From an uncultured Dactylococcopsis sp. (GTDB taxonomy: Bacteria > Cyanobacteriota > Cyanobacteriia > Cyanobacteriales > Rubidibacteraceae), in NCBI GenBank assembly GCA_964463655.1, contig CAYXDG010000006.1, positions 3,405 through 67,404 on the forward strand: a DNA stretch of 64,000 bases, read 5' to 3'. Under the pieces are notes generated by a model that did no database searches, was not told where the DNA came from, and saw only the letters and a list, made by a program, of their open reading frames with translations. Both the position numbers and the translations under genes were made by a program. This document shows positions 1,686 to 32,766 of this stretch, piece by piece. The stretch's first letter is position 1, and each line of letters opens with the position of its first letter.

Positions 1686-3485
1686 GTGGTGAAAAGAAAG
1701 CAAAGAAAATGGTCCTTTTCAAAAGAAATCATCTCGTCAATGATCGGAATCGGGTCTCTATTTGTGATGGGAGAGGCGATCGCTGCTGAAAAAATTAATC
1801 TTCGCATCGGTCCGATAAAATATCAGATTCAAGTGAAAGATTTAGAAGCGTATGGGAAAACAGGAGAAGTTCCTCCTTCCCTAAAACTATTAAAACCTTT
1901 TCTGACTCCAAAGGTGCAAAACTGGTTGACCCGTCGCTTAAGTTTTGACCAAGAGGTGATTGATCAGTTTGTATTGAGAACACTGCGATCGCCCCAACTC
2001 GAACCTCTCATTGAACAGTTACAAACGGCGTTTCCTGAAGCGGACTTTCAAGAGTTGATGTTAGGCTTATATGTAGCGTTTCAACGGGGAGAGGGGTTAA
2101 GTGTCTTGGAATTGATTAGTGCTTATCCCGAAGAAACCTTAACCATTGACGCGACTGCCGCGATCGGACTGGGACTACAATTAAATTTATCTTACTTGCA
2201 AAGCCGACTCTTAGCCCCAATTCTCGCTCAAGAATTAGCAGTGGAATCTTCAGCCACAACGTTTCCCACCACCCTCGATCCCACGGCGACAGGAGTGTTT
2301 AATTTTACAGAACGCAGTTTAATCTTTCACGATCCTCATCGAGAACGGACCATTTTTGCTGACTTTTATCTACCAGAAGCAAAAAATCCTCCACTGGTTA
2401 TTTTTTCTCATGGATACGCAGCCAACCGCCGTTTTCTCAACTATTTAGCTCGACATTTAGCCAGTCATGGTTATACGGTGGTGACCCTCGATCATCCTGG
2501 TAGTAATATTAATCTGTTTTCCGATCGTGACTTGAACGAAGAAGCGAGGGAATTATTATCTCCTGAAGAGTTATTACACCGTCCTCAAGATATTAGTTTC
2601 CTCTTAAATGAACTGAATCAATTAAACCATTATTCGCGCGTGTTACAGAATCAGTTCAACACAGAAGATGTTACAGTCATTGGTCATTCTTTAGGCGGTT
2701 ATACAGCCTTAGCGTTAGCAGGAGGGGAGTTGGACTTAAAAGCAGTTCGTCGCTTCTGTCGCCAAGTAAGTCCTCTTGCACGTTCTCCCGCCGACTGGTT
2801 ACAATGTGCTGGGGCGAAGTTACCCAATAGTACCCTCCGCTTGCGCGATCGGCGCGTAAAGCGAGTGATTGCCCTGAATCCGATGATTAGTCATTTGTTT
2901 GGGGAGGAAGGATTAACTAACGTCACCATTCCTACCCTGATGTTTAGCAGTAGTGAAGATGTCATTACACCGACTCTCACGAATCAACTCAAACCCTTTG
3001 CCCAACTTTCAGGTGAGAAGTATCTCCTCACTGCGATCGGAGCAACGCACATGAGTGTTACAGATATTCAGGGTCATCAGAGTGCTGTTGGACAAAATAC
3101 CCTCGTTCCTGAACTGATGGGAAAAAATGCAGAACCAGTCCGCAGTTTGATTCGTGGCACAACTTTGGCGTTTTTAAGGCAAAACAGCCATCAAGCAGAA
3201 CAATATCAACCCTTCCTCACCCCAGAATATACCCAGTTTCTCTCCACCCCTGATTTGTCCTTCCGTCTCACTCAGACAGTCTCTCCCAGTTTGAAGCCTT
3301 GGTTACAAGGGATTGACTGGACTCGTCAACGGTTTTTAGTGCGAAAAGAGGAATGGCGCGATCGCCGACGCAGCACCCAAGTCGATTTAGATTTACCAAG
3401 ATTGAGAAACCGAGAGGTCACCCATCAATCTTATCAGGGAGAATTAGAAAAGATTTTCACGGATCTTTCTCGCACTCAGGGTTAA
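1686..3485 (+). CDS. Alpha/beta hydrolase with N-terminal DUF1400 domain (predicted dienelactone-hydrolase-like)
   Basis: Signal-like N-terminus, PLVIFSHG, LDHPGS, GHSLGG nucleophile elbow. Typical cyanobacterial architecture. Confidence 0.85.
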   Translation: MVKRKQRKWSFSKEIISSMIGIGSLFVMGEAIAAEKINLRIGPIKYQIQVKDLEAYGKTGEVPPSLKLLKPFLTPKVQNWLTRRLSFDQEVIDQFVLRTLRSPQLEPLIEQLQTAFPEADFQELMLGLYVAFQRGEGLSVLELISAYPEETLTIDATAAIGLGLQLNLSYLQSRLLAPILAQELAVESSATTFPTTLDPTATGVFNFTERSLIFHDPHRERTIFADFYLPEAKNPPLVIFSHGYAANRRFLNYLARHLASHGYTVVTLDHPGSNINLFSDRDLNEEARELLSPEELLHRPQDISFLLNELNQLNHYSRVLQNQFNTEDVTVIGHSLGGYTALALAGGELDLKAVRRFCRQVSPLARSPADWLQCAGAKLPNSTLRLRDRRVKRVIALNPMISHLFGEEGLTNVTIPTLMFSSSEDVITPTLTNQLKPFAQLSGEKYLLTAIGATHMSVTDIQGHQSAVGQNTLVPELMGKNAEPVRSLIRGTTLAFLRQNSHQAEQYQPFLTPEYTQFLSTPDLSFRLTQTVSPSLKPWLQGIDWTRQRFLVRKEEWRDRRRSTQVDLDLPRLRNREVTHQSYQGELEKIFTDLSRTQG

Positions 3486-3727: not shown

Positions 3728-3745
3728 GGTGGGCAAAGCCCACCC
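3728..3745. repeat. REP-like small dispersed palindrome GGTGGGCAAAGCCCACCC
   Basis: GGTGGGC-AAA-GCCCACC hairpin. Copies at 29501 and 61292. Confidence 0.8.
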
Positions 3746-3761
3746 GACCAATTCTGAAATC

Positions 3762-5153
3762 CTAGCGAGTTGCTGCAACGGCGAGGTTTTCAGGAAGAAG
3801 ATTCCGCAAGCGCTGACCGTACAAGTTTAAAGCATTACCGCCTAGTAATAAAGCGAGGTAATCGCGATCGTAATCAGCGCTCGTGGCGGCATCGCTAACA
3901 CAGCCTTCTAAAACACCATCCCAATGACCATAGTCGCCAGAGAAACAGGCGATATGTTTACCCATTTCACCCATTGCTTGCGGAATATAGGAAGGGCCTG
4001 GATCATCAGACTCAAAGGAAGCAAAGATTTGTCCCCGTCGGAAATAGTCTAAAGGATCGCGGTGACGCAAGTCGTAGTGTTCATAGAGGGTCTCATCATC
4101 AATATGAGTGGGATCGGTTTGCTTGTTCCAAAGCAGATCAAACAAGTTCCGTGCTTGAGAGATGATGTTAACGTTGTTTTCGCTTCCCTGTTCTTGGATC
4201 ATCAACTTGGTAAAGTCCATTAGAGAGGGACGATAGGGATTCTTGGGGTCAAAATCACGGATTCGTTTTTCCCAGTGTTCGTGGAACGCATGGGCGAGGT
4301 CTGGAATCCAACCGCAACCCCCTTCGAGGAAACCCACTCGTAAAGTGGGGAACTGTTCAAACGCGCCATCAAACACCATTCGCGCTAAGGCTAGCTGCTG
4401 CTGGTTACGTTGCACAAAAATATGAGTGAGAACAAAGGTTTCGGTGTGATCTGCAATTCCACCAATCATATCCGAACCGGGTCCGCCGTGAATTCCTAAG
4501 CCAATGTCGAGATCGACTGCAGCTTGGAGAATGGGACGGAAATCAGGGTGAGAAATTACTTTACAGGTGCGAATTTCAGGGAACGCATCGGGTGCTTTAG
4601 GATGGGGGATAGGAAGATTGGGCGCGACTGCCACTGAAATCATTCCCAGTTCGTTGACGCAGCGATACATTTCTTTCACTGCTTCTTCGACATCCTGTAA
4701 GCAAATGACCCCAATGGGTTGCAGGCGATTGTCATAGCCTTTGCAATCATCTGCCATGTAGTTGTTGTAGGCTTTACACAGTGCGATCGCGAGGTCTTTG
4801 TCTAAAATACTCGAAAAGATCAAATTTAATGTCCCGTAAATGGCATGAACATCAATTCCTTCCTGATCCATCTGTTCAATACGAATTTTATTGAACATCG
4901 CCCCCAATGTGGTATCAGGGTTAAGGGTGCGAAAACCGCCTTTTCCTAATCCTTGGGGTTTGGGAAACATCCGCACGAAATCATTGGCTTTGGTTTGCGG
5001 ATTCCAATCCACGACTCTAGCGCGTTGATCCCCTAAACTATCCACCACTAACCCGATGCGATCACGGTATTCTGGTTCTAGATAATCCCGCATAATCAGG
5101 GGATTTTCTAATTTATGGGCATCTGCGTCAATAACTAATAAGCCGTTATACAT
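3762..5153 (-). CDS. Amidohydrolase family protein (Amidohydro_2, ACMSD/decarboxylase-like TIM barrel)
   Basis: IDADAHKLE metal motif, LGIHGG, FLEGGCGW, FSGDYGHWD. Confidence 0.85.
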   Translation of the reverse strand: MYNGLLVIDADAHKLENPLIMRDYLEPEYRDRIGLVVDSLGDQRARVVDWNPQTKANDFVRMFPKPQGLGKGGFRTLNPDTTLGAMFNKIRIEQMDQEGIDVHAIYGTLNLIFSSILDKDLAIALCKAYNNYMADDCKGYDNRLQPIGVICLQDVEEAVKEMYRCVNELGMISVAVAPNLPIPHPKAPDAFPEIRTCKVISHPDFRPILQAAVDLDIGLGIHGGPGSDMIGGIADHTETFVLTHIFVQRNQQQLALARMVFDGAFEQFPTLRVGFLEGGCGWIPDLAHAFHEHWEKRIRDFDPKNPYRPSLMDFTKLMIQEQGSENNVNIISQARNLFDLLWNKQTDPTHIDDETLYEHYDLRHRDPLDYFRRGQIFASFESDDPGPSYIPQAMGEMGKHIACFSGDYGHWDGVLEGCVSDAATSADYDRDYLALLLGGNALNLYGQRLRNLLPENLAVAATR

Positions 5154-5183
5154 TAATGAAGACTCCTCACAAAGGTTTTCTAT

Positions 5184-5504
5184 TTAATTGGATTGTTGTT
5201 TGGTTGGTTGAAATAGCTGACGTAAACCAAACCAATTTTCAAATGACCAAGCCATCGAAATTAAAATCACGATTCCTGGATATTGTTTGAACGCTGGTTC
5301 ATTTTTTTCAAAAACAATGTGTCCCCCAATAGCTAACACTTGGGTCAAGACACCGCAAAGTAGGGCAATTCGCCAATCGATAAATAAATAAGCGATTCCG
5401 ACGAACACAAGGATATTAACAATGTGGTGCAAAGCCTGATTAATTGGGTTTTGATGACTTGCAAGGAAATGTGCTTTTGCTTGTTGGAAGTAACTCAACG
5501 TCAC
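5184..5504 (-). CDS. Mpo1-like (DUF962) small membrane protein
   Basis: HQNPINQALHH and GGHIVFEKNEPAF motifs with hydrophobic segments between. GTG start after GGAGA. Confidence 0.8.
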   Translation of the reverse strand: MTLSYFQQAKAHFLASHQNPINQALHHIVNILVFVGIAYLFIDWRIALLCGVLTQVLAIGGHIVFEKNEPAFKQYPGIVILISMAWSFENWFGLRQLFQPTKQQSN

Positions 5505-5613
5505 TCTCCTTATTCACTGATGTTGAGATTCTACCTGACCAAGATACTACTTGATGCTGAGAATAATCTGAGCAAAAGATTAAGTTTTTCAAATCTTTTG
5601 TAACCGTTTTATC

Positions 5614-6111
5614 CTACCACCACTTTAGGGCAAAATACCCAGTTTGTTGGGACAGTTCTTCTTCTGTCAACCAGTCCACCAGCTTATATGTTCCAAAGAC
5701 ATGATCCCACCAATCGACTCCTAAACCAAAGTTATGATGCCACATTCCGTATTTATGATGGACATAGTGAACGGGCATTTTCATCCAGAAGCATTTGGTG
5801 GGGTTTTCGTGCTGGAGTTGATGGGCATAAGCAGAGAAAATCGAGTAACACAGCGCACCCGCTAGCCAACCCATTCCCACTTCCCAAGAGATGAAAAATG
5901 GCAATAACATCGCGATCGCGCTACCCTTTACATAGTCTAGAAACTCCCACAGCACCCCTTGTCCTTCATTACGGCGATGGTGGTCGCGGTGGCGTTCCCC
6001 CAGTTTCTGCGAGGCGTGCATCAGCCGATGAATCCAGTATTCCACGAAACTGGCAACAACAAAAGCGCTAATTAAACTAATACTCAGAGCAATCATAATT
6101 TTAACCCTCAC
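5614..6111 (-). CDS. Sterol desaturase / fatty acid hydroxylase superfamily protein
   Basis: Four His boxes (HRLMH, HRDHH, HQLQH, HYVHH) and NFGLGVDWWDHVFGT. Confidence 0.85.
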   Translation of the reverse strand: MRVKIMIALSISLISAFVVASFVEYWIHRLMHASQKLGERHRDHHRRNEGQGVLWEFLDYVKGSAIAMLLPFFISWEVGMGWLAGALCYSIFSAYAHQLQHENPTKCFWMKMPVHYVHHKYGMWHHNFGLGVDWWDHVFGTYKLVDWLTEEELSQQTGYFALKWW

Positions 6112-6119
6112 ACTCTCTC

Positions 6120-7070
6120 TTAAATTTTATACAACATTTGTTTGATGATCTTCCAACTCGGTTGTTTTAAAAATTGTTTAATTGTTCCCAGCGCGATCGG
6201 GGCAAGTGCTAAGATATTACCGATCACCAGTCGCCACCGTTGCCAAGATAAATAATTTTCTAGTGTGGGGGAGACTTGCCAAAATCGACTAACCGAACAG
6301 GACATTTCATCTTCTTCTAAAGTCGTAATTTCATGCCACCATCCCACAGGAATAAATAGCACTTCTCCCGCTTCTAAGATAATGGTTTCTTGCTGTTTTT
6401 GGGCGGTTTCAAATTTAGGAAATGTTTGAAAATCAGCATTTTCAATATCCACCCGACTATAACAAGCTCGTAGTTTCAAACCGTGACGTAAATGTGTCCA
6501 GATCGAAAACGGATATAAATTTTCAGTGACCGTTGGCGGAAATAGAACTACTTTTTTCTTGCCATAAAGTTGGCAGATTGTCCCATCAACAATATCATAA
6601 TGGAGAGAAGAAGTATGTCCCCCATGTCCCATATACATCCGATAACCTGTGATTGGTTTTAATTTCAGTTTTGCTCCTAATTCCTGTAAAGAATTAATCT
6701 GGCTTAAGGGGGTATTTTCTAGAGAAGCCTTTGCTAAATAAATGTCTTCTGTTTTAGCTTGACCATTTCGCAACATTCGGGCATACTCTGAAAATAGCAT
6801 CGGTTTGAGGTCAACGCCACTGCCAATGCTTTGCCATTGCTGTTTATCCTGTTGATAGCGCTGCTGTCCATAGTAGCGGACTAAAAATTCTTGCTCTGCG
6901 ATCGCATTACACAAATAGTCTAAACTCCAATGAGCATCTTCGGCAAGCAATCCAGTTAAAACTAAAGGCTGATTCTTTTTTTGATATAATTCTAAGAAAC
7001 TCTCAGGGGAGATTTCAGAGATATCAACTTTCGGAATTGACATTATCTTCTGACGTTCAAAACTCTGCAC
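6120..7070 (-). CDS. JmjC / cupin-like Fe(II)-2OG oxygenase (Cupin_8)
   Basis: SSLHYD facial-triad motif, QLYGKKKVVLFPP, GEVLFIPVGWWHEI. Alternative ATG start at 7043. Confidence 0.85.
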   Translation of the reverse strand: MQSFERQKIMSIPKVDISEISPESFLELYQKKNQPLVLTGLLAEDAHWSLDYLCNAIAEQEFLVRYYGQQRYQQDKQQWQSIGSGVDLKPMLFSEYARMLRNGQAKTEDIYLAKASLENTPLSQINSLQELGAKLKLKPITGYRMYMGHGGHTSSLHYDIVDGTICQLYGKKKVVLFPPTVTENLYPFSIWTHLRHGLKLRACYSRVDIENADFQTFPKFETAQKQQETIILEAGEVLFIPVGWWHEITTLEEDEMSCSVSRFWQVSPTLENYLSWQRWRLVIGNILALAPIALGTIKQFLKQPSWKIIKQMLYKI

Positions 7071-7092
7071 AAATATTATACCTTTAACGCTG

Positions 7093-8775
7093 ATGTCTAA
7101 TTTTTTATTGAATACTTTAAAAATTGCCTCTCAAGTTGCTAAGTTTCAATTTGAACAAGAAACAAAGGCAGTTTCTGAGACACAAGCGAAGTTTCTCAAA
7201 ACTGTTTTAAAGTCCCATCAAGAGACAGTTTTGGGCAAGGAAGAAAAACTGGAGGCAATTCAAACTATTGATGAATTTCGATCGCGCATTCGAGTTCGTT
7301 CCTATGCTAATTATGAACCATATATTGATCGCATGGCACAAGGAGAAGAAAATATCTTGACGCGCGATCGCGTTACCTATTTTAACACCACCAGTGGCTC
7401 AACGGGCAAACAAAAACTCATTCCAGTGACCCGAAAATTCCAAAACTCATTAGGAAAAGCCAATTTAGTGAGTATTGGTTTTCTCAATAGTGCTTTAAAA
7501 AAACAAGGGAAACAGTTGGGAAAACTCCTGCTAACCAATAGTACAGATATTTCTGGTTATACCACTGGGGGAATTCCTTATGGGAGTGGATCTGCTGGCG
7601 TTTTAAAGATGGGAAAATGGGTCTATCAACAACTGTTTGCAAACCCTTATGAAACCCTCCAAATTCGTGATAGTATTGCCCGTCACTATATCTCTCTCCT
7701 GTTTGCGTTACAGAGTCCAAGTTTGGGAGGAATGGCTGCTAACTTTCCCATGTTAATTCTTCGCACTTGCCAATACTTAGAACAATATAGCAAAGATTTA
7801 ATTCATGACTTAAAGTTTGGTAAAATTCCCACATGGCTGAATCTAGAATCTCATCTTAGAAACCAATTGGAAAAACAACTCTTTCCACAACCGCAACGTG
7901 CAGAAGAGTTAGAAATGATCCTCAAGTCCCAAGGATATTTAACCCCGAAAAAAGTTTGGCAAAACTTGTCTTATGTTGCCACAGCTAGAGGAGGAACATC
8001 TGATTTTTATCTGCAACGTTTCCTCGATTATTTTGAGGATACCTCAGTTTTTGGCGCTGCTTATACCTCCGCAGAAGCCACTTATAGCATTTATCCAGAT
8101 GTTAATATTGATGGGAGTGTTTTAGCAGTGGGAACGGGTTTTTTTGAGTTTATTCCTGAAACAGAAATAAATACTGATTATCCTAATACCCTTCTCGCAA
8201 CAGAAGTGGAAGTGGGAAAACGTTATCGTATTCTTGTCACCAACTATAATGGTTTTTATCGTTATGATAATGGCGATGTTGTGGAAGTAGCTGGGTTTTA
8301 TAATCAAGCACCTTTAATTGTTTTTCGTTATCGTCAAGGAGGGATTATTTCCTCAACGGTAGAAAAAACAACAGAAGCTCATGCAGTGGAAGTCATGCGA
8401 TGTTTACAGATTGAATTTAGTCTAATTCTAGAAGACTTTTGTATCACGCTTTCGGAAAAAGAAACCCCTGCTCATTATATCCTGAATATTGAACTGACCA
8501 CGGAAGAAAATGTTCCTGATTGGCATAAATTTCTAGAACGATTTGATGAACTTCTCAAAGAAATTAACCCTCGTTATGGCGCAAAACGTCAAGAATTAGT
8601 TCCTCCCCCACGCTTACATTTATTAGGCAAGGGAAGTTTTGATGTTGTGCGTAAACGTCAACGAGAAAAGGGAATTCCAGACTCACAATTAAAGTTTCCT
8701 CATATTAGTGAAGACCGCAGTTTAGTTGCTGGGTTACAAGTTTTAGAAGAGTATCAATTGTCTGATGGCGAGTGA
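7093..8775 (+). CDS. GH3 family acyl acid amido synthetase (ANL superfamily)
   Basis: TTSGSTGKQKLIP P-loop, YTSAEA, GFYRYDNGDVV motifs. Confidence 0.9.
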   Translation: MSNFLLNTLKIASQVAKFQFEQETKAVSETQAKFLKTVLKSHQETVLGKEEKLEAIQTIDEFRSRIRVRSYANYEPYIDRMAQGEENILTRDRVTYFNTTSGSTGKQKLIPVTRKFQNSLGKANLVSIGFLNSALKKQGKQLGKLLLTNSTDISGYTTGGIPYGSGSAGVLKMGKWVYQQLFANPYETLQIRDSIARHYISLLFALQSPSLGGMAANFPMLILRTCQYLEQYSKDLIHDLKFGKIPTWLNLESHLRNQLEKQLFPQPQRAEELEMILKSQGYLTPKKVWQNLSYVATARGGTSDFYLQRFLDYFEDTSVFGAAYTSAEATYSIYPDVNIDGSVLAVGTGFFEFIPETEINTDYPNTLLATEVEVGKRYRILVTNYNGFYRYDNGDVVEVAGFYNQAPLIVFRYRQGGIISSTVEKTTEAHAVEVMRCLQIEFSLILEDFCITLSEKETPAHYILNIELTTEENVPDWHKFLERFDELLKEINPRYGAKRQELVPPPRLHLLGKGSFDVVRKRQREKGIPDSQLKFPHISEDRSLVAGLQVLEEYQLSDGE

Positions 8776-9020
8776 TCAGAGTTTACTATATCTAGATCAC
8801 ATACTATTATGTTATGAATAACAATATACTGTCTTCAAAAACAAGAACTGTAGTTGATTGAGGCGAAATTGAGTGAGAAATCGCAAGAAGAAAGGAGAGA
8901 GGGAGATGGTGCTGGGAGAGCATTTGCTCTAAAATATTTTCCGTGAGCTAGACTTTCCCTCTAATCTGCACGTTATAATTTGTTACGGAAGCTAATATTG
9001 TTTATTATTTGCATTATTTT

Positions 9021-9365
9021 ATGAGTAATCCTGCTCTACACGCCTTCTATGTAGGTCGCGCCTTTGCTGAGGTACTTGGGGAACGGTTGGAAGATACTGT
9101 CACCAATGGACTGAGTGAACTGGGTCAACTAGAAGCTAAACAGCGAGAAGCGATGCGAGAATTTGTGGAAGAAGTGATGGCTCGCGCTGAGAAAAACGAA
9201 GGTCAATCGGTTTCAACCAGCACTCAACCCACTACTTCCACGCGATCGCAAGCCAGCAAACGTTCTCCCGAAGACATTCAAGCGATGGTGGATGAATTAC
9301 GAGCTTCGATCGCCAGCTTAAGGACAGAACTAAACGCCTACAAAAGTCAAAAAGGATCATCTTAA
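9021..9365 (+). CDS. Conserved cyanobacterial protein (DUF6825-like) upstream of ABC1 kinase
   Basis: MSNPALHAFYVGRAFAE N-terminus and coiled-coil C-terminus. ATG at 9021 preferred over the TTG at 9009. Confidence 0.7.
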   Translation: MSNPALHAFYVGRAFAEVLGERLEDTVTNGLSELGQLEAKQREAMREFVEEVMARAEKNEGQSVSTSTQPTTSTRSQASKRSPEDIQAMVDELRASIASLRTELNAYKSQKGSS

Positions 9366-9414
9366 AAAGTTTACTTATCCCTCTATCGCCAAAACGCTAT
9401 CAAGGAATCGTGCT

Positions 9415-11160
9415 GTGTCTGCACTCTCTGAGAAATCAAATCAGTCTCTAAACCAACCCGTTATTCCAGCTTCTTCACCAGCCCCAGAAGCAGGGAAAAA
9501 AGCCTATCGTTGGAATCAAGAAAACTACTCTCGCAACCGTCGGCGTTTCGACATCTGGTTATTTGTCCTTTCTGTGATCTTTAAGCTCTGGTTAGAGGAC
9601 AAAGAATGGAGCTATATCGGCGGTTACACAAAGGAAAAGAAGAAAACTCGGCGAAAAGCAAGAGCAGCTTGGATTCGGGAAAGTTTTCTCGAACTCGGTC
9701 CGACTTTTATTAAGGTTGGTCAATTATTCTCCACTCGCGCCGATATTTTTCCCAGTGAGTATGTTGAAGAGCTATCTAAGCTCCAAGACCGCGTCCCTGC
9801 TTTTGATTTTGAGCAAGTGGCAGCGATTATCAAGGAAGACTTAGGAAAACCAGTTGAGCAAGTGTTTCAAAGTTTTGACCCCACCCCGCTAGCTGCTGCG
9901 AGCTTAGGACAAGTTCACAAAGCGCAACTCCAAAACGGAGAAACAGTGGTGGTGAAAGTCCAACGACCAGGCTTGAAAAAATTATTCACCATTGATTTAG
10001 CGATTCTCAAACGCATTGCCCGTTATTTTCAAAATCATCCTCGTTGGGGAAAAGGACGGGATTGGGTGGGCATTTATGACGAATGTTGTCGCATTCTTTG
10101 GGAAGAAGCGGATTACCTCAATGAAGGACGCAATGCAGATACCTTTCGCCGTAATTTCCAAAATTACGATCGCGTGCGTGTGCCGAGGGTGTTTTGGCGC
10201 TATACTTCATTACGGGTGCTAACCCTAGAGTATCTCCCAGGGATTAAAGTTAGCCATCATGAGGCTCTAGAAGCAGCAGGCATCGATCGCAGCATGATTG
10301 CTCGTTTGGGCGCGGAAACCTATCTCCAACAATTGCTTTATGACGGCTTCTTTCATGCCGATCCTCACCCAGGCAATCTGGCTGTAAGCACCCAAGGCCA
10401 ACTCATTTTTTACGATTTTGGCATGATGGGACGGATTAAGAGCAATGTTCGGGAAAACTTAATGGAAACCCTTTTTGGGATTGCGGAAAAAAATGGCGAT
10501 CGCGTCCTCAATTCTTTAATTGAATTAGGTGCTCTGGCTCCAGTTGGTGATACCAGTGCAGTGCGACGATCCATTCAATATATGCTCGATCACTTTATGG
10601 ACGAGCCATTTGAGGAACAATCAGTGGCTGAAATCAGTGATGACCTCTATGAAATCGCCTACAACAACCCCTTCCGCTTCCCTGCCACCTTTACCTTTGT
10701 CATGAGGGCGTTTTCTACCCTAGAAGGAGTCGGGAAAACCCTCGACCCTGAATTTAACTTCATGGCAGTGGCTCAACCTTATGCAATGGAACTTATGAAC
10801 AGTAACGGTTACGATAACGGTCAAACCTTTCTCGATGAAATTGGGCGACAAGCGGCCCAAGTCAGTTCAACTGCCCTCGGCTTACCCCGTCGCTTAGAAG
10901 AAACAATTGATAAACTAGAGAGAGGAGATTTGCGCTTGCGAGTGAGATCGATCGAAAGCGATCGCCTTCTCAGGCGGATGAGCACTGTGCAATTAGGCAC
11001 AAACTACACGCTGCTGATTGTGGCTTTTACAATTTCAGCAACCATTCTTGTGGTTAACGAATTGATCACTTTAGCAGTGATTATGGCTCTAGCTGCTGGT
11101 GCTTCCGCATTGGCCTTGATGCGCCTATTAAAACGACTCGATCGCTGGGATCGAATGTAA
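9415..11160 (+). CDS. AarF/ABC1/UbiB family atypical protein kinase
   Basis: LGPTFIKVGQ, AAASLGQVHKA, VVKVQRP, FFHADPHPGN, DFGMMG. Confidence 0.93.
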   Translation: MSALSEKSNQSLNQPVIPASSPAPEAGKKAYRWNQENYSRNRRRFDIWLFVLSVIFKLWLEDKEWSYIGGYTKEKKKTRRKARAAWIRESFLELGPTFIKVGQLFSTRADIFPSEYVEELSKLQDRVPAFDFEQVAAIIKEDLGKPVEQVFQSFDPTPLAAASLGQVHKAQLQNGETVVVKVQRPGLKKLFTIDLAILKRIARYFQNHPRWGKGRDWVGIYDECCRILWEEADYLNEGRNADTFRRNFQNYDRVRVPRVFWRYTSLRVLTLEYLPGIKVSHHEALEAAGIDRSMIARLGAETYLQQLLYDGFFHADPHPGNLAVSTQGQLIFYDFGMMGRIKSNVRENLMETLFGIAEKNGDRVLNSLIELGALAPVGDTSAVRRSIQYMLDHFMDEPFEEQSVAEISDDLYEIAYNNPFRFPATFTFVMRAFSTLEGVGKTLDPEFNFMAVAQPYAMELMNSNGYDNGQTFLDEIGRQAAQVSSTALGLPRRLEETIDKLERGDLRLRVRSIESDRLLRRMSTVQLGTNYTLLIVAFTISATILVVNELITLAVIMALAAGASALALMRLLKRLDRWDRM

Positions 11161-11220
11161 TAAATTGGTCAAATAAACCTGTTATTTTTATTTTGTACAT
11201 TGGTTATTCAAAAAAAAGCT

Positions 11221-12000
11221 ATGAAACGTCGCTTTGATGGGCGAACTGACACGGGAGTTGTGCGTGCAGTCAACCAAGACTGCTTCTATTATGATCCGCG
11301 AGGACGTTTTTTTATCGTCGCCGATGGCATGGGAGGACACGCAGGAGGACAAGAAGCCAGTCGCCTTGCCACTCAAACTATTAGCCAATATTTAGAACAA
11401 CATTGGAATAGTGATTTAGAATCAGAAACCCTACTCCACAAAGCAGTTGAGGAAGCGAACGCAAAAATCATTGCGGATCAAAAAACTCATCCTGAACGTG
11501 CAGAAATGGGAACAACTCTTGTGGCAGTTGTTTTCCGTCACGGACAATCTTGGTGTGTTCACGTGGGAGACTCGCGACTCTACTTGTGGCGAGATAATGT
11601 CCTCACCCCCCTCACTGAAGATCATACTTGGGTAGCGTGGGCTTTAAGATCAGGAACCATCTCTCCCGAAGAAGCTGGAATTCATCCCTGGCGTCATGTT
11701 TTATCTCAATGTCTTGGACGCAAAGAACTCTGTGCGATCGAAACAGATATTCTCAATGTTCAACCAGGCGATCGACTCCTACTCTGTAGCGATGGTTTAA
11801 CAGGAGAAGTCTCAGACGAAGAGATTGGTATTTACCTAAGAGAAGCTGAAACCTGTGAAGAAGCCGTGAACGAACTGATTGAAACCGCTAAAGAAAATGG
11901 GGGGTCTGACAATGTTACGGTAGTTGTTATTGAAGAAGGAGAATCCGAAGATAGCTTTAGCACTCAAGAAGAAGCAGATACCTTATCCTCAGACTATTAA
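11221..12000 (+). CDS. pphA: PP2C-family Ser/Thr phosphatase (PphA-like)
   Basis: NQDC, VADGMGGHAGG, HVGDSRLY, LLCSDGLT, GGSDNVT. Follows the ABC1 kinase as in the known cyanobacterial arrangement. Confidence 0.85.
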   Translation: MKRRFDGRTDTGVVRAVNQDCFYYDPRGRFFIVADGMGGHAGGQEASRLATQTISQYLEQHWNSDLESETLLHKAVEEANAKIIADQKTHPERAEMGTTLVAVVFRHGQSWCVHVGDSRLYLWRDNVLTPLTEDHTWVAWALRSGTISPEEAGIHPWRHVLSQCLGRKELCAIETDILNVQPGDRLLLCSDGLTGEVSDEEIGIYLREAETCEEAVNELIETAKENGGSDNVTVVVIEEGESEDSFSTQEEADTLSSDY

Positions 12001-12014
12001 AAGTTTTAAGGAAA

Positions 12015-12035
12015 GAGGGCGCAACCCGCGCCCTC
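12015..12035. terminator. GC-rich hairpin between convergent genes
   Basis: GAGGGCGC-AACCC-GCGCCCTC. Confidence 0.55.
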
Positions 12036-12045
12036 CTAGTGATGA

Positions 12046-12963
12046 TTATTGGAAGGTTTCCTCAAACGGAGAGGGTTCATCCAGAGGAGACGATTCTGCA
12101 GGAGATGGCCGATCGCTGTCCACATCTGCTAAATCCCCTAAATTAAATAAGAAAGGAACACTGCTTTTGTTTTCCCCTCCTAATACCAAAACATTGGGCA
12201 TTTGCGCCCCTCCTTGTCGCCAAGCCTCGATTGCTTCTTTTTGTAGCACCAGCGACCCCCCTTGCGCCCGTAAGGTATCCGCTAACAACCGTTGTGCTTC
12301 AGCACGTCCTTTCGCCCGATTGATGTCTGCTTGCGCCTTTTGTTCGGCTTCTCTGGCAATATAAACCGCCCTTTGAGCGCTTTGTTCTGCGATTTGTTTA
12401 TCTTCCACTGCTTGGGCAAAGGCTTCTGTAAAATTGAGATCAATCACACTGGTATCGAGGATAATAATCCCATATTTATCCAAGCGCTCACTGAGAGCAA
12501 CATCAAAATCCTCCTTCAACTCATCCCGTCTGGTGATCGCCTCTTCAGCAGTTTTTCGCGCTGCTGCCACTTTAAACGATTCTTGCGTTTGGGGAGAAAT
12601 AATTTTCGCCACCACATTACTTAATGTCCCTTGTTTCCGACGAATATCCACCACTCGCACAGGGTCGAGACGGAAGTTAATGGCAAAACTTGCATTCAAA
12701 TCTTGTAAGTCTTTTGTCGCACTTTGGGCAGGGACTTCATATTTTTGCACCGTCACATCATATACATCCACTTTAGAAATAATGGGCGGTTTAAAGTGAA
12801 TCCCTTCTAAAAGCGCTCCGTCTTGGGCTTTTCCTAGAATACTCAGCACCCCTGCTTCCCCTGGATTAATAACAGAGTAGGAATTGAAGCCAAGGATCAG
12901 TAGTAGTGCTGCAATGATTCCGCCCGCGATCGAGATTATACTTTGGGAATTGGGTTTATTCAA
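12046..12963 (-). CDS. Prohibitin / SPFH (band 7) protein, copy B
   Basis: N-terminal TM, VINPGEAGV, SATKDLQ, KQIAEQ coiled coil. TTG start after GGAG. Confidence 0.9.
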   Translation of the reverse strand: MNKPNSQSIISIAGGIIAALLLILGFNSYSVINPGEAGVLSILGKAQDGALLEGIHFKPPIISKVDVYDVTVQKYEVPAQSATKDLQDLNASFAINFRLDPVRVVDIRRKQGTLSNVVAKIISPQTQESFKVAAARKTAEEAITRRDELKEDFDVALSERLDKYGIIILDTSVIDLNFTEAFAQAVEDKQIAEQSAQRAVYIAREAEQKAQADINRAKGRAEAQRLLADTLRAQGGSLVLQKEAIEAWRQGGAQMPNVLVLGGENKSSVPFLFNLGDLADVDSDRPSPAESSPLDEPSPFEETFQ

Positions 12964-12991
12964 AAAAATTAGCTCCTCGTATGAAATTGGT

Positions 12992-13957
12992 TTATCTTAA
13001 GTTGCCATACCCTGGGGGAAGATTCAGGGGAGATAAGGAGTCTTTTTCCTCCTTTTCAAAAGGAGAAGGCTCATCTAAAGGGGATGCTTCTTTAGGAGAA
13101 GGACGGTCTTGATCAATATCCGCTAAATCCCCTAAATTAAACAAGAAGGGAATACTGCTTTGGTTTTCCCCTCCTAAAATTAACACATTGGGCATTTGCG
13201 ACCCTCCTTGTCGCCAAGCCTCGATCGCCTCTTTTTGTAGCACCAGAGACCCCCCTTGCGCCCGTAAGGTATCCGCTAACAACCGTTGTGCTTCTGCTTT
13301 CCCTTTGGCTCGGTTAATATCCGCTTGCGCTTTTTGTTCAGCTTCCCTAGCAATATAAACCGCCCGTTGAGCGCTTTGTTCGGCAATTTGTTTATCTTCC
13401 ACCGCCTGAGCAAACTCCTTGGTAAAATTCAGGTCAATGACGCTTGTATCAAGGACAACAATGCCATATTTGTCCAATCGATTATTTAATGCGATATCAA
13501 AGTCCGCTTTTAACTCATCCCGCTTGGTGATTGCTTCTTCGGCGGTTTTTCGCGCTGCTGCAATCTTAAACGATTCTTGGGTTTGAGGGGCAATCACTTT
13601 CGAGACAACATTACTCAATGTTCCCTGTTTCCGTCGAATGTCCACCACTTTCACAGGGTCAAGACGAAAATTAATCGCAAAACTCGCCTTTAAATCTTGT
13701 AAGTCTTTGGTTGCACTTTGGGCAGGCACTTCAAACTTTTGCACCGTCACATCATACACATCCACTTTCGAGATAAAAGGAAATTTGTAATGAATTCCCT
13801 CTAATAAAGCATCTTCTTGAGCTTTTCCCAAAATGCTTAAAACCCCTGCTTCTCCCGGGTTAACGACAACATAAGAATTAAAGCCAATCAGGATTAATAA
13901 AGCAGCAACAATTCCACCAATAATCGCGATGAGGCTTTGGTTTGTTTGTTTGGCCAA
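12992..13957 (-). CDS. Prohibitin / SPFH (band 7) protein, copy A
   Basis: Same motifs as copy B. TTG start after GGAGAG. Confidence 0.9.
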   Translation of the reverse strand: MAKQTNQSLIAIIGGIVAALLILIGFNSYVVVNPGEAGVLSILGKAQEDALLEGIHYKFPFISKVDVYDVTVQKFEVPAQSATKDLQDLKASFAINFRLDPVKVVDIRRKQGTLSNVVSKVIAPQTQESFKIAAARKTAEEAITKRDELKADFDIALNNRLDKYGIVVLDTSVIDLNFTKEFAQAVEDKQIAEQSAQRAVYIAREAEQKAQADINRAKGKAEAQRLLADTLRAQGGSLVLQKEAIEAWRQGGSQMPNVLILGGENQSSIPFLFNLGDLADIDQDRPSPKEASPLDEPSPFEKEEKDSLSPLNLPPGYGNLR

Positions 13958-31587: not shown

Positions 31588-32766
31588 CTAATTCCCAAGG
31601 GGCGATCGTTCTCTCAAAGCCAGAAAAAAGCCTCCTAAAAGGGCTAAAACCGCAGCGGTATTAAACACCCCAGTTAACCCACCTGCTGCCAAAATGGGGC
31701 TAAAGAGAAGGGGAGAGATAAATTGTCCTAAGAAGCTAGTGCCGATCGCGATCGCGAGAATACTAGACCGCAGACTTTTCGGGGCTAAATTGGACAAACT
31801 GCTGTAAAGATTGGGGAGCGCCAAGCCAAACCCAATCCCAAACACAAGCGCTGAGGTCAGAAGAAAGAGAAATTGTTGGAGAAAGGGGATACTGAACAGA
31901 CTCAACCCCATTAAACCAAAACCGATCGCGATCGTGCCATTGATGGACAACTGTTTAACAATCTTTTTCGAGGCAAAAACGGAAATTAACGCTGCGCCTA
32001 ACGCTCGTATAGCCAGTAAAACACCATTTTCAACCGTTCCCAATCCTAGGGTTTCTTCCAGATACAACGGGGCGTAAATCACTACAGAATACATAATTGC
32101 TGCGGTGAGTGTCACTAATAACAAGCGCTCGATCGCAGCAGCACTGGATAAGAGTTTTCTTAATGTCGTGGATAAGCCAACATTCTCATGGTTTGAGGAG
32201 GATTGAACGTCTGGAAACGCAGACTGACTCATCATCGCTAAGGGAAACGCCACTGCATAAATGATGAACGCATAGCGCCAGTTGATCGATCCGACTCCAC
32301 CCCCTAATAAGGGAAAGATAATTCCTGTAACGGTTAAAACCGCAGTGGCATAAGCCAAGATTTGAGCGCGAGTGTCTTGATCATATAACTTTCCTAACAA
32401 GCCTAAACTCCCCGCAGCGATCCCCCCTGCTGTTGCACCCAGTAACGCTCGACTCGTCAGCAGTAACCAAAAATTGCTGAGGAATGCTCCCATTGTGCCA
32501 AAAATTCCATACAATACCAAGGAAGGAATGAGGACTCGTTTGGGAGAAACCCAATCGGCGACTAAGCCTAAAAGCGGACTGAATAAGGCTAAGGTGAGAG
32601 CATGAACGCTGACTAAATGAGTCGCCAGAGCGCGATCGAAGTTGAGGTCGTTAATCACTTGTGGTAACACTGGGGCAACCAACCCCCCTGTCATGGTAAT
32701 CAACGCACCCGTGGCTAAAATAATAAACTTTCGACTTGACTCTCCTTGCACCCATTGATGTCTCAT
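31588..32766 (-). CDS. MFS transporter
   Basis: About 12 hydrophobic segments, GLVADWVSPKRV motif-A-like, SRALLG. Confidence 0.9.
   Translation of the reverse strand: MRHQWVQGESSRKFIILATGALITMTGGLVAPVLPQVINDLNFDRALATHLVSVHALTLALFSPLLGLVADWVSPKRVLIPSLVLYGIFGTMGAFLSNFWLLLTSRALLGATAGGIAAGSLGLLGKLYDQDTRAQILAYATAVLTVTGIIFPLLGGGVGSINWRYAFIIYAVAFPLAMMSQSAFPDVQSSSNHENVGLSTTLRKLLSSAAAIERLLLVTLTAAIMYSVVIYAPLYLEETLGLGTVENGVLLAIRALGAALISVFASKKIVKQLSINGTIAIGFGLMGLSLFSIPFLQQFLFLLTSALVFGIGFGLALPNLYSSLSNLAPKSLRSSILAIAIGTSFLGQFISPLLFSPILAAGGLTGVFNTAAVLALLGGFFLALRERSPLGN

Follow-up and report, generated by a model that had tools for sequence, protein, structure and literature searches.

A GH3 ligase and four oxidative-enzyme genes of Dactylococcopsis as the candidate tailoring arm of a conserved and probable amino-lipid pathway of cyanobacteria

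We analysed a 64,000-nucleotide stretch of DNA from an uncultured Dactylococcopsis sp. (the window), in which four minus-strand genes stand back to back with a plus-strand gene for a GH3-family acyl-acid amido synthetase. In order of transcription, the four encode a JmjC/Cupin_8 Fe(II)/2-oxoglutarate oxygenase, a short membrane enzyme of the FA_hydroxylase superfamily (FAH), an Mpo1-like (DUF962) membrane protein and a protein of the Amidohydro_2 family (AMID) (Table 1). An open reading frame (ORF) check of the window together with Pfam searches agreed with an earlier reading made from the letters of this stretch (the sequence-only reading) on the placing of the five genes and on minus-strand intergenic gaps of 30, 109 and 8 bp, and all five family assignments scored above the gathering thresholds. 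The JmjC gene more likely begins at the ATG at 7043 (MSIPKV...), which shortens the protein to 307 aa and leaves 49 bp to the ATG of GH3. Catalytic motifs, described in that reading as intact in all five genes, are invariant or conserved across orthologues. With moderate confidence, we consider the five genes to be the amide-ligase and oxidative-tailoring half of a conserved, previously uncharacterised cyanobacterial pathway, whose product would be a long-chain amino-alcohol or amino lipid, N-acylated and hydroxylated.

Table 1. Features of the window, with positions counted from its first nucleotide
Feature	Position	Strand	Evidence or remark
Amidohydro_2 gene (AMID), putative amidohydrolase-related dinuclear oxygenase (ARO), 463 aa	3762..5153	-	Last gene of the minus-strand operon; Pfam PF04909, 6.9e-17
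Mpo1-like/DUF962 membrane protein, putative Fe(II) dioxygenase module, 106 aa	5184..5504	-	Pfam PF06127, 4.3e-13
Short FA_hydroxylase-superfamily membrane di-iron enzyme (FAH), 165 aa	5614..6111	-	Pfam PF04116, 1.6e-14
JmjC/Cupin_8 Fe(II)/2-oxoglutarate oxygenase, 316 aa ORF	6120..7070	-	Cupin_8, 1.8e-38, and JmjC_2
Very short divergent intergenic region, common to the JmjC operon and GH3	7044..7092		Sequence reading
GH3-family acyl-acid amido synthetase, 560 aa	7093..8775	+	Pfam GH3 N, M and C domains: 1.3e-82, 4.4e-24, 4.4e-19
Terminator-like hairpin directly 3' of the AMID stop codon, possible operon end	3731..3745	-	Consensus scan; weak
MFS transporter, pathway membership uncertain	31588..32766	-	48% identity across 350 aa with the MFS linked to the cluster in locus L005

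Gene content was compared across a sample of 401 cyanobacterial genomes, with 10 non-carriers as controls, and synteny was read from tblastn searches of 23 GH3-containing loci together with loci drawn from whole-genome searches. The AMID, Mpo1-like and FAH genes (the trio) were found in 20 of the 401 genomes. In each of these 20, the AMID gene is followed directly by the Mpo1-like gene, and in nearly all of them FAH comes next. A close GH3 was present in 23 genomes, including 19 of the 20 with the trio, even where the two lie far apart on the chromosome. Both sets are contained in a third, the 27 genomes (about 7%) that carry a second alpha-oxoamine synthase (AOS), an enzyme of the class I/II aminotransferase fold for which orthologues were accepted at an identity of at least 68%; this set includes every trio genome and every GH3 genome, and its AOS orthologues are 68-87% identical. 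A GNAT-domain orthologue accompanies the AOS in 27 of 27 genomes and was found in none of the 10 controls. Carriers include Allocoleopsis franciscana, Mastigocladopsis repens and Synechococcus sp. PCC 7336.

The genes are also neighbours. GH3 lies no more than 5 kb from the trio in nine of 19 other sampled genomes, in most of them directly divergent from FAH, and in one genome (G212) FAH is parted from the Mpo1-like and AMID genes and remains beside GH3. ORF clustering over 25 loci showed GH3 and the trio to be often flanked by genes for an MFS transporter, a Rieske oxygenase, the AOS, the GNAT-domain protein and an epimerase-family SDR, and in other genomes GH3 was likewise linked to the MFS, the SdmA-like Rieske, AOS, GNAT and SDR genes. 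The window comes from a halophilic, unicellular member of the Halothece/Dactylococcopsis group, and the GH3 loci closest to its own belong to Halothece and Dactylococcopsis metagenome-assembled genomes (MAGs). The full order, GH3 divergent from JmjC-FAH-Mpo1-Amidohydro_2, recurs in Halothece-group MAGs and in one Nostocales genome, where a single cluster of about 14 kb (L108) runs AOS (minus), MFS (plus), GH3 (minus), then JmjC, FAH, Mpo1-like, Amidohydro_2, Rieske, B12 radical SAM, GNAT and SDR (all plus) and MacB (minus). AMID and Rieske genes are 3 bp apart there, GNAT and SDR overlap by 4 bp, and JmjC and GH3 are 50% and 60% identical to those of the window. Since one Nostocales cluster holds the same genes, we take the five-gene arrangement to be ancient and to form one arm of a system of 11-12 genes. 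The five-gene arrangement is far from chance. The long residence for which HIP1 sites had been cited is supported; the five-gene region has four HIP1 sites, about the density of the window as a whole (64 sites in 64 kb versus 0.55 expected).

These data bear on what the five genes do together. The sequence-only reading had proposed a compact, self-contained module for an N-acyl amino acid, in which GH3 makes the compound, the oxygenases alter it and the amidohydrolase finally cleaves the conjugate. GH3 enzymes do couple amino acids with other acids, an N-acyl amino acid lipid is the product of OlsH, and hydroxylases of the FA_hydroxylase family and of the 2-oxoglutarate type (OlsE, OlsC) modify ornithine lipids. 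Self-sufficiency is nevertheless improbable. In the sample, GH3 and the trio were never found without AOS and GNAT, the Nostocales genome places them in one operon with the genes of the AOS pathway, and AMID carries the ligands of a dinuclear oxygenase, not the H-x-H of hydrolases and decarboxylases. The five genes thus look like an accessory part of a larger pathway, whose committed enzymes (AOS, GNAT and SDR) are encoded on contig C10 of the same genome and beside these genes in other cyanobacteria. That they are functionally linked and oriented toward lipids, as had been suggested, is borne out by co-occurrence and synteny; of the five families, the trio and GH3 recur together, and JmjC is confined to a minority of the pathway genomes.

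On contig C10, the AOS, GNAT and SDR orthologues (62-75% identical to their counterparts) lie together at C10:24104-27625 (L076:8105-11644), with GNAT and SDR overlapping by 4 bp; this operon is probably the core of the pathway served by the genes of the window. The gene order AOS-GNAT-SDR is the same in relatives, and SDR stands beside GNAT in most loci examined. The true BioF of this genome is encoded on contig C30 (449 bits against a cut-off of 426), and the C10 AOS passes none of the equivalog cut-offs of the BioF, Kbl, ALAS, Spt and CqsA models; the C10 enzyme is therefore distinct from BioF. Its best match in the Protein Data Bank (PDB) is Sphingobacterium Spt, by a slim margin. The fold of the GNAT partner is that of a tandem GNAT and resembles MshD, glucosamine N-acetyltransferase and N-myristoyltransferase. 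Only in the genome that holds the window is the AOS operon divergent from a gene pair for an ECF sigma factor and its anti-sigma factor; the pair was considered as a conserved regulator of the operon and discarded, as it is not conserved in two genomes of the same genus.

Rieske orthologues occur in 20 of the 27 pathway genomes, always adjoining AOS, and are missing in the window's family and in one other genus. JmjC is the least constant member, with orthologues in six of the 27 genomes and none of the 10 controls, and it repeatedly adjoins GH3 in the loci of other genomes. It is present in four of the seven genomes that lack the Rieske gene versus two of the 20 that have it (p = 0.02), a distribution that hints weakly at a replacement of the Rieske oxygenase by JmjC, the two alternating in part by lineage. 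The only NCBIfam match of the Rieske gene is SdmA (239 bits), and the SDR matches HpnA (205 bits) and SdmB (143 bits) best. Together with a radical SAM enzyme reminiscent of HpnP/HpnR and an FAH reminiscent of sterol oxidases, these resemblances could be taken to indicate modification of hopanoids or other triterpenoids. We find this hardly credible: all the named matches score far below their cut-offs, and the squalene-hopene cyclase gene shc, present in seven of the 10 non-carriers, is absent from 12 of the 27 pathway genomes. The window's own genome is among these 12, which refutes hopanoid modification for that genome.

Amidohydrolase-related dinuclear oxygenases (AROs) are defined by an N-terminal D-x-H and a C-terminal D-x-P-H-x-D/E, both absent from hydrolases and decarboxylases of the same fold (PMC13154177). 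The PF04909 TIM-barrel fold of AMID is supported by its Pfam match, by an AlphaFold2 model (pLDDT 82) and by Foldseek, and on its first beta strand AMID has the D-x-H, not the H-x-H of hydrolases and decarboxylases. The candidate ligands (D11-A12-H13, H222, E277 and D407-Y-G-H410-W-D412) are invariant in 25 orthologues. They amount to three histidines and three carboxylates, the same count as in the di-metal site of SfbO, and E277 occupies the position of the catalytic histidine in ACMSD. All three ligand residues of the C-terminal loop are kept and invariant, with glycine in place of the published proline; more distant relatives carry the canonical D-Y-P-H-x-D. Among PDB sequences, DitZ, ACMSD and PtmU3 matched best, and the top structural neighbours were PtmU3, ACMSD, DitZ, TruffO, SfbO and AibH (AibH1H2), all of them AROs with the exception of ACMSD. 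Based on this ligand pattern and these neighbours, we read AMID as a candidate O2-dependent enzyme, probably a hydroxylase or oxidative decarboxylase and not an amide hydrolase. This removes the "break" step from the earlier proposal, and the annotation "amidohydrolase family protein" is probably misleading for genes of this type. As the published ARO filter requires proline where D-Y-G-H-W-D has glycine, the AMID clade would escape it.

The group of AMID orthologues is sharply bounded: within cyanobacteria its members are 74-92% identical, against near 33% for the next class of relatives. The nearest relative that is not an orthologue is 47% identical, has the same ligand set and lies within the stretch L106:5700-16778. 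That stretch is a fatty-acid natural-product cluster of cyanobacterial type, with genes for a CylC-like halogenase, an acyl carrier protein (ACP), a phosphodiesterase, a reductase and a fatty acyl-AMP ligase (FAAL), and with two KSIII ketosynthase genes. The company of the halogenase, ACP, FAAL and KSIII suggests acyl-chain substrates for AMID as well.

The same relative can be counted in favour of the main rival explanation, in which the product is a small amphiphile released from the cell (for instance a signal, surfactant, metal chelator or toxin); GH3 would couple an oxidised acyl acid with an amino acid, and the MFS protein would serve as exporter. In many loci GH3 is flanked by an MFS gene with 44-67% identity to the one linked to the cluster in L005, and the best named relative of the pathway-linked MFS is a siderophore exporter. 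Natural-product clusters typically show such heavy tailoring by oxidative and radical-SAM enzymes, the 47%-identical relative of AMID itself lies in a natural-product cluster with a FAAL and a CylC-like halogenase, and the distribution over about 7% of genomes is patchy. Set against this, AMID and AOS orthologues are very highly conserved across orders, which is unusual for genes of secondary metabolism; FAH and the Mpo1-like protein are integral membrane enzymes; the genome of the window has the genes dispersed, at two loci or more; and the cluster has no carrier protein and no polyketide synthase (PKS) or nonribosomal peptide synthetase (NRPS), the latter two as already observed for the five genes from the sequence. 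We therefore hold a secreted amphiphile to be unlikely, if worth keeping in view. The MFS gene within the window, which may be a relative of the MFS that goes with GH3 elsewhere, shows no local linkage there to the five genes.

Radical SAM genes need separate comment. In the window's own genome, contig C16 (L077:7243-13138) carries a run of genes for a B12 radical SAM protein (DUF4070), an MFS protein, a SnoaL-like protein and a cytochrome P450. The DUF4070 gene was rejected as a pathway member, being part of a multi-copy family with similar identity in all controls. The radical-SAM copies located inside the clusters of other genomes are plausible members.

FAH and the Mpo1-like protein have the features expected of membrane metalloenzymes. 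FAH has an N-terminal transmembrane helix and the His boxes HRLMH, HRDHH, HQLQH and HYVHH, invariant in 23 orthologues, and so shows the His-box motifs (HX3-4H, HX2-3HH) in a membrane protein by which the PF04116 superfamily is recognised. In the Mpo1-like protein, which scores 49.6 bits against a Pfam cut-off of 24, H17, H26, H27, H62 and E66 are invariant in 23 orthologues and two to three hydrophobic transmembrane helices are present; we regard it as a putative Fe(II) dioxygenase module. In yeast, the families of AOS, FA_hydroxylase and Mpo1 take part in sphingolipid metabolism. Mpo1 of yeast acts as a 2-hydroxy-fatty-acid dioxygenase (Pfam description), and FAH and Mpo1-like genes are adjacent in nearly all trio loci, which would suit a catabolic or remodelling route: the two enzymes would shorten 2-hydroxy or long-chain acids by alpha-oxidation, much as yeast degrades phytosphingosine, and the shortened acid would be re-activated by GH3, for recycling or detoxification of lipids. 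We give this route little credence, given the strict co-presence of AOS, GNAT and SDR of biosynthetic type, their place in the same operon in Nostocales and the lack of linked beta-oxidation or lyase genes.

The JmjC protein retains the facial triad of the double-stranded beta-helix oxygenases (H157-Y-D159 and the WWH of a WWHE motif) and scores 133 bits on Cupin_8. Its best PDB matches are FIH (7e-19) and JMJD5, enzymes that hydroxylate amide-linked residues. Both JmjC copies of the MAG SW_9_44_58 (L003:7041-7975 and L014:10533-11380) align in two frames, through either a frameshift or an assembly error.

In GH3, the nucleotide motifs TSGST, YTSAE (Y-x-S-x-E) and YDNGD (Y-x-x-G-D) are conserved in 16 orthologues, and the best PDB match is JAR1 (8.6e-37). 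A maximum-likelihood tree placed all trio-adjacent GH3s, that of the window among them, in one clade of 28 rows with support of 98/98; the 16 rows of a second clade have MFS, JmjC or AOS-Rieske genes as their linked partners instead. For a bacterial GH3 in the synthesis of an N-acyl amino lipid there is now a precedent: OlsH of planctomycetes makes lyso-ornithine lipid from free fatty acids (PMC12493201). The protein of the window fails the OlsH model NF052613, matching it over N-terminal stretches only with 77.9 bits against an equivalog cut-off of 620.

Three observations concern the surroundings of GH3 genes. Contig C16 of the window's own genome holds two short GH3-like fragments (C16:47597-47947; L025, L026), one with an in-frame TAG, between genes for Uma2-family nucleases; a second GH3 paralogue has probably decayed there. 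In three genomes, one of the same genus (L058:7310-8506, L060 and L072), a pyridoxal-phosphate (PLP) enzyme resembling threonine synthase and cysteate synthase is encoded between FAH and GH3, which, by analogy with capnine synthesis, hints at an unusual and possibly sulfonate amino-acid building block. At four loci (L065:13384-14951, L068, L061 and L064), GH3 is followed by genes for a GST-like protein of 335 aa and for a 152-aa protein without a Pfam family.

From the families, motifs, synteny, co-occurrence and operon fusion described above we infer substrates, an order of steps and a product. The C10 AOS would condense an amino acid with an acyl thioester to an alpha-amino ketone, the tandem GNAT would N-acylate or N-acetylate the amine, and the SDR would reduce the ketone. 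GH3 would activate a carboxylic acid by ATP-dependent adenylation, the likeliest substrate being a free fatty acid that may be (2-)hydroxylated, and couple the activated acid through an amide bond to the pathway amine, as OlsH does with ornithine. FAH, the Mpo1-like protein and the putative ARO would hydroxylate or oxidatively trim the product; in some lineages JmjC would hydroxylate the amide-linked head group, in partial alternation with the Rieske oxygenase of other lineages. MFS and MacB proteins may move the product.

Bacterial ceramide synthesis is defined by the enzyme-class triad Spt, bCerS and CerR, and a ceramide-like product in cyanobacteria has some background. Reports of cyanobacterial sphingolipids are restricted to Scytonema julianum (acetylsphingomyelin) and Moorea producens, both of which have more than one AOS, and Nostoc punctiforme has BioF only and no sphingolipids (PMC8895605). 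A Scytonema genome in our data carries the GNAT orthologue. More than one AOS in the species with reported sphingolipids and a GNAT orthologue in Scytonema fit a ceramide-like product.

Several points weigh against reading the pathway as a route to such an amino lipid. The C10 AOS reaches only 165.8, 159.6 and 114 bits on the Spt models (cut-offs 640, 500 and 670) and scores best on the BioF model (232 bits against a cut-off of 426), and GNAT and SDR match bCerS and CerR at superfamily level only. Two amide-forming enzymes, GH3 and the GNAT N-acyltransferase, would act in one pathway. The cluster has no conserved ACP, no conserved head-group transferase and no conserved reductase partner for the ARO, and a secreted metabolite would equally account for the MFS exporter and for the Rieske and radical-SAM enzymes. 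Finally, the Fisher p values for co-occurrence, from 1e-27 to 1e-33, ignore shared ancestry among the carriers, although these come from about 14 families.

A bolder version, which we put forward as tentative and rather doubtful, is that about 7% of the sampled cyanobacteria, relatives of Scytonema included, have a de novo sphingoid or ceramide-type route of their own. It would start from a BioF-like AOS, employ GH3 as an ATP-dependent, CoA-independent N-acyl (ceramide-type) synthase, and leave tailoring to the ARO, the Mpo1-like protein and a minimal His-box hydroxylase. If true, it would explain genetically why sphingolipids have been reported from isolated cyanobacteria, and bacterial Mpo1/DUF962 proteins and this ARO clade would gain their first physiological substrates. 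On sphingolipid-like synthesis in cyanobacteria, earlier work had seen no genetic basis in Nostoc punctiforme and had pointed to a second AOS in the producing species (PMC8895605), and the gene set described here offers a concrete, conserved candidate pathway. It also gives a biological setting to bacterial GH3 ligases beyond OlsH, to bacterial Mpo1/DUF962 proteins and to the ARO clade with D-Y-G-H-W-D, in a cluster that standard rules for biosynthetic gene clusters would miss.

Around the five genes, the window shows several further features. G+C content is 0.38-0.39 over JmjC and GH3 (window 6000-9000) versus 0.44-0.47 over the AMID gene and the flanks; HIP1 sites are present in both the JmjC and the GH3 gene despite the low G+C there. 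In a consensus scan, promoter and terminator hits were no more numerous than in shuffled sequence. Downstream of GH3 (9009-13957) follow genes for a DUF6825 protein, an ABC1/UbiB-type kinase and a PP2C phosphatase and two tandem SPFH/prohibitin genes, a block that is syntenic within the Halothece group only (L001, L003). On the other side, a plus-strand gene at 1686-3485, convergent with the AMID gene, encodes a DUF1400 domain and an alpha/beta hydrolase resembling lipases and PAF-acetylhydrolase. As an analogue of OlsI this hydrolase was rejected, with no syntenic counterpart in 24 related loci.

With plant GH3 proteins (JAR1, GH3.5/6/12), the window's GH3 shares the full three-domain architecture and the nucleotide-binding motifs; unlike them, it belongs to a bacterial clade far removed from theirs, in which cyanobacteria have two groups of paralogues, and has no phytohormone context. 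FAH and the Mpo1-like protein belong to the same Pfam families (PF04116, PF06127) as yeast Sur2 and Scs7 (FA_hydroxylase) and Mpo1 (2-hydroxy-palmitate dioxygenase), with conserved His ligands and membrane embedding, but are minimal versions (165 and 106 aa) without a cytochrome b5 domain. AMID resembles the AROs DitZ, PtmU3, SfbO and AibH2 and oxidative decarboxylases of the BarH type in its PF04909 TIM barrel, its D-x-H, its D-x-x-H-x-D loop and its additional His and Glu ligands (PMC13154177, PMC10811679). It differs from the solved AROs in being about 100 aa longer, in sharing 16-21% identity with them, in having glycine for proline and in lacking a small Rieske ferredoxin partner.

At the level of pathways, the OlsH/OlsI route to ornithine lipids likewise combines a GH3-family enzyme with hydroxylases of the FA_hydroxylase and 2-oxoglutarate families (OlsE and OlsC in ornithine lipids). 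Beyond the low score on the OlsH model, the window's GH3 differs in having no conserved OlsI-like alpha/beta-hydrolase partner and in going with the AOS pathway, not with ornithine. In the searched literature, no characterised cluster matches the combination, as had been supposed. Overall, the sequence-only interpretation is partly supported, in that the pathway is real, conserved and without a literature match, of lipid or acyl-amide type and related in kind to bacterial amino-lipid and ceramide-type pathways. The likeness to bacterial ceramide synthesis (Spt-bCerS-CerR of Caulobacter and Bacteroidota), a match of enzyme class only, lies in the adjacent genes for a PLP-dependent AOS, an N-acyltransferase of GNAT type and an NAD(P) reductase of the epimerase family. 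The C10 AOS, below all Spt cut-offs and best on BioF, sets the cyanobacterial cluster apart, as does the lack of a dedicated ACP or acyl-CoA synthetase. To that triad of enzyme classes the cyanobacterial cluster adds GH3, the putative ARO, the Mpo1-like protein, FAH and a Rieske or JmjC oxygenase, all absent from the known ceramide pathway.

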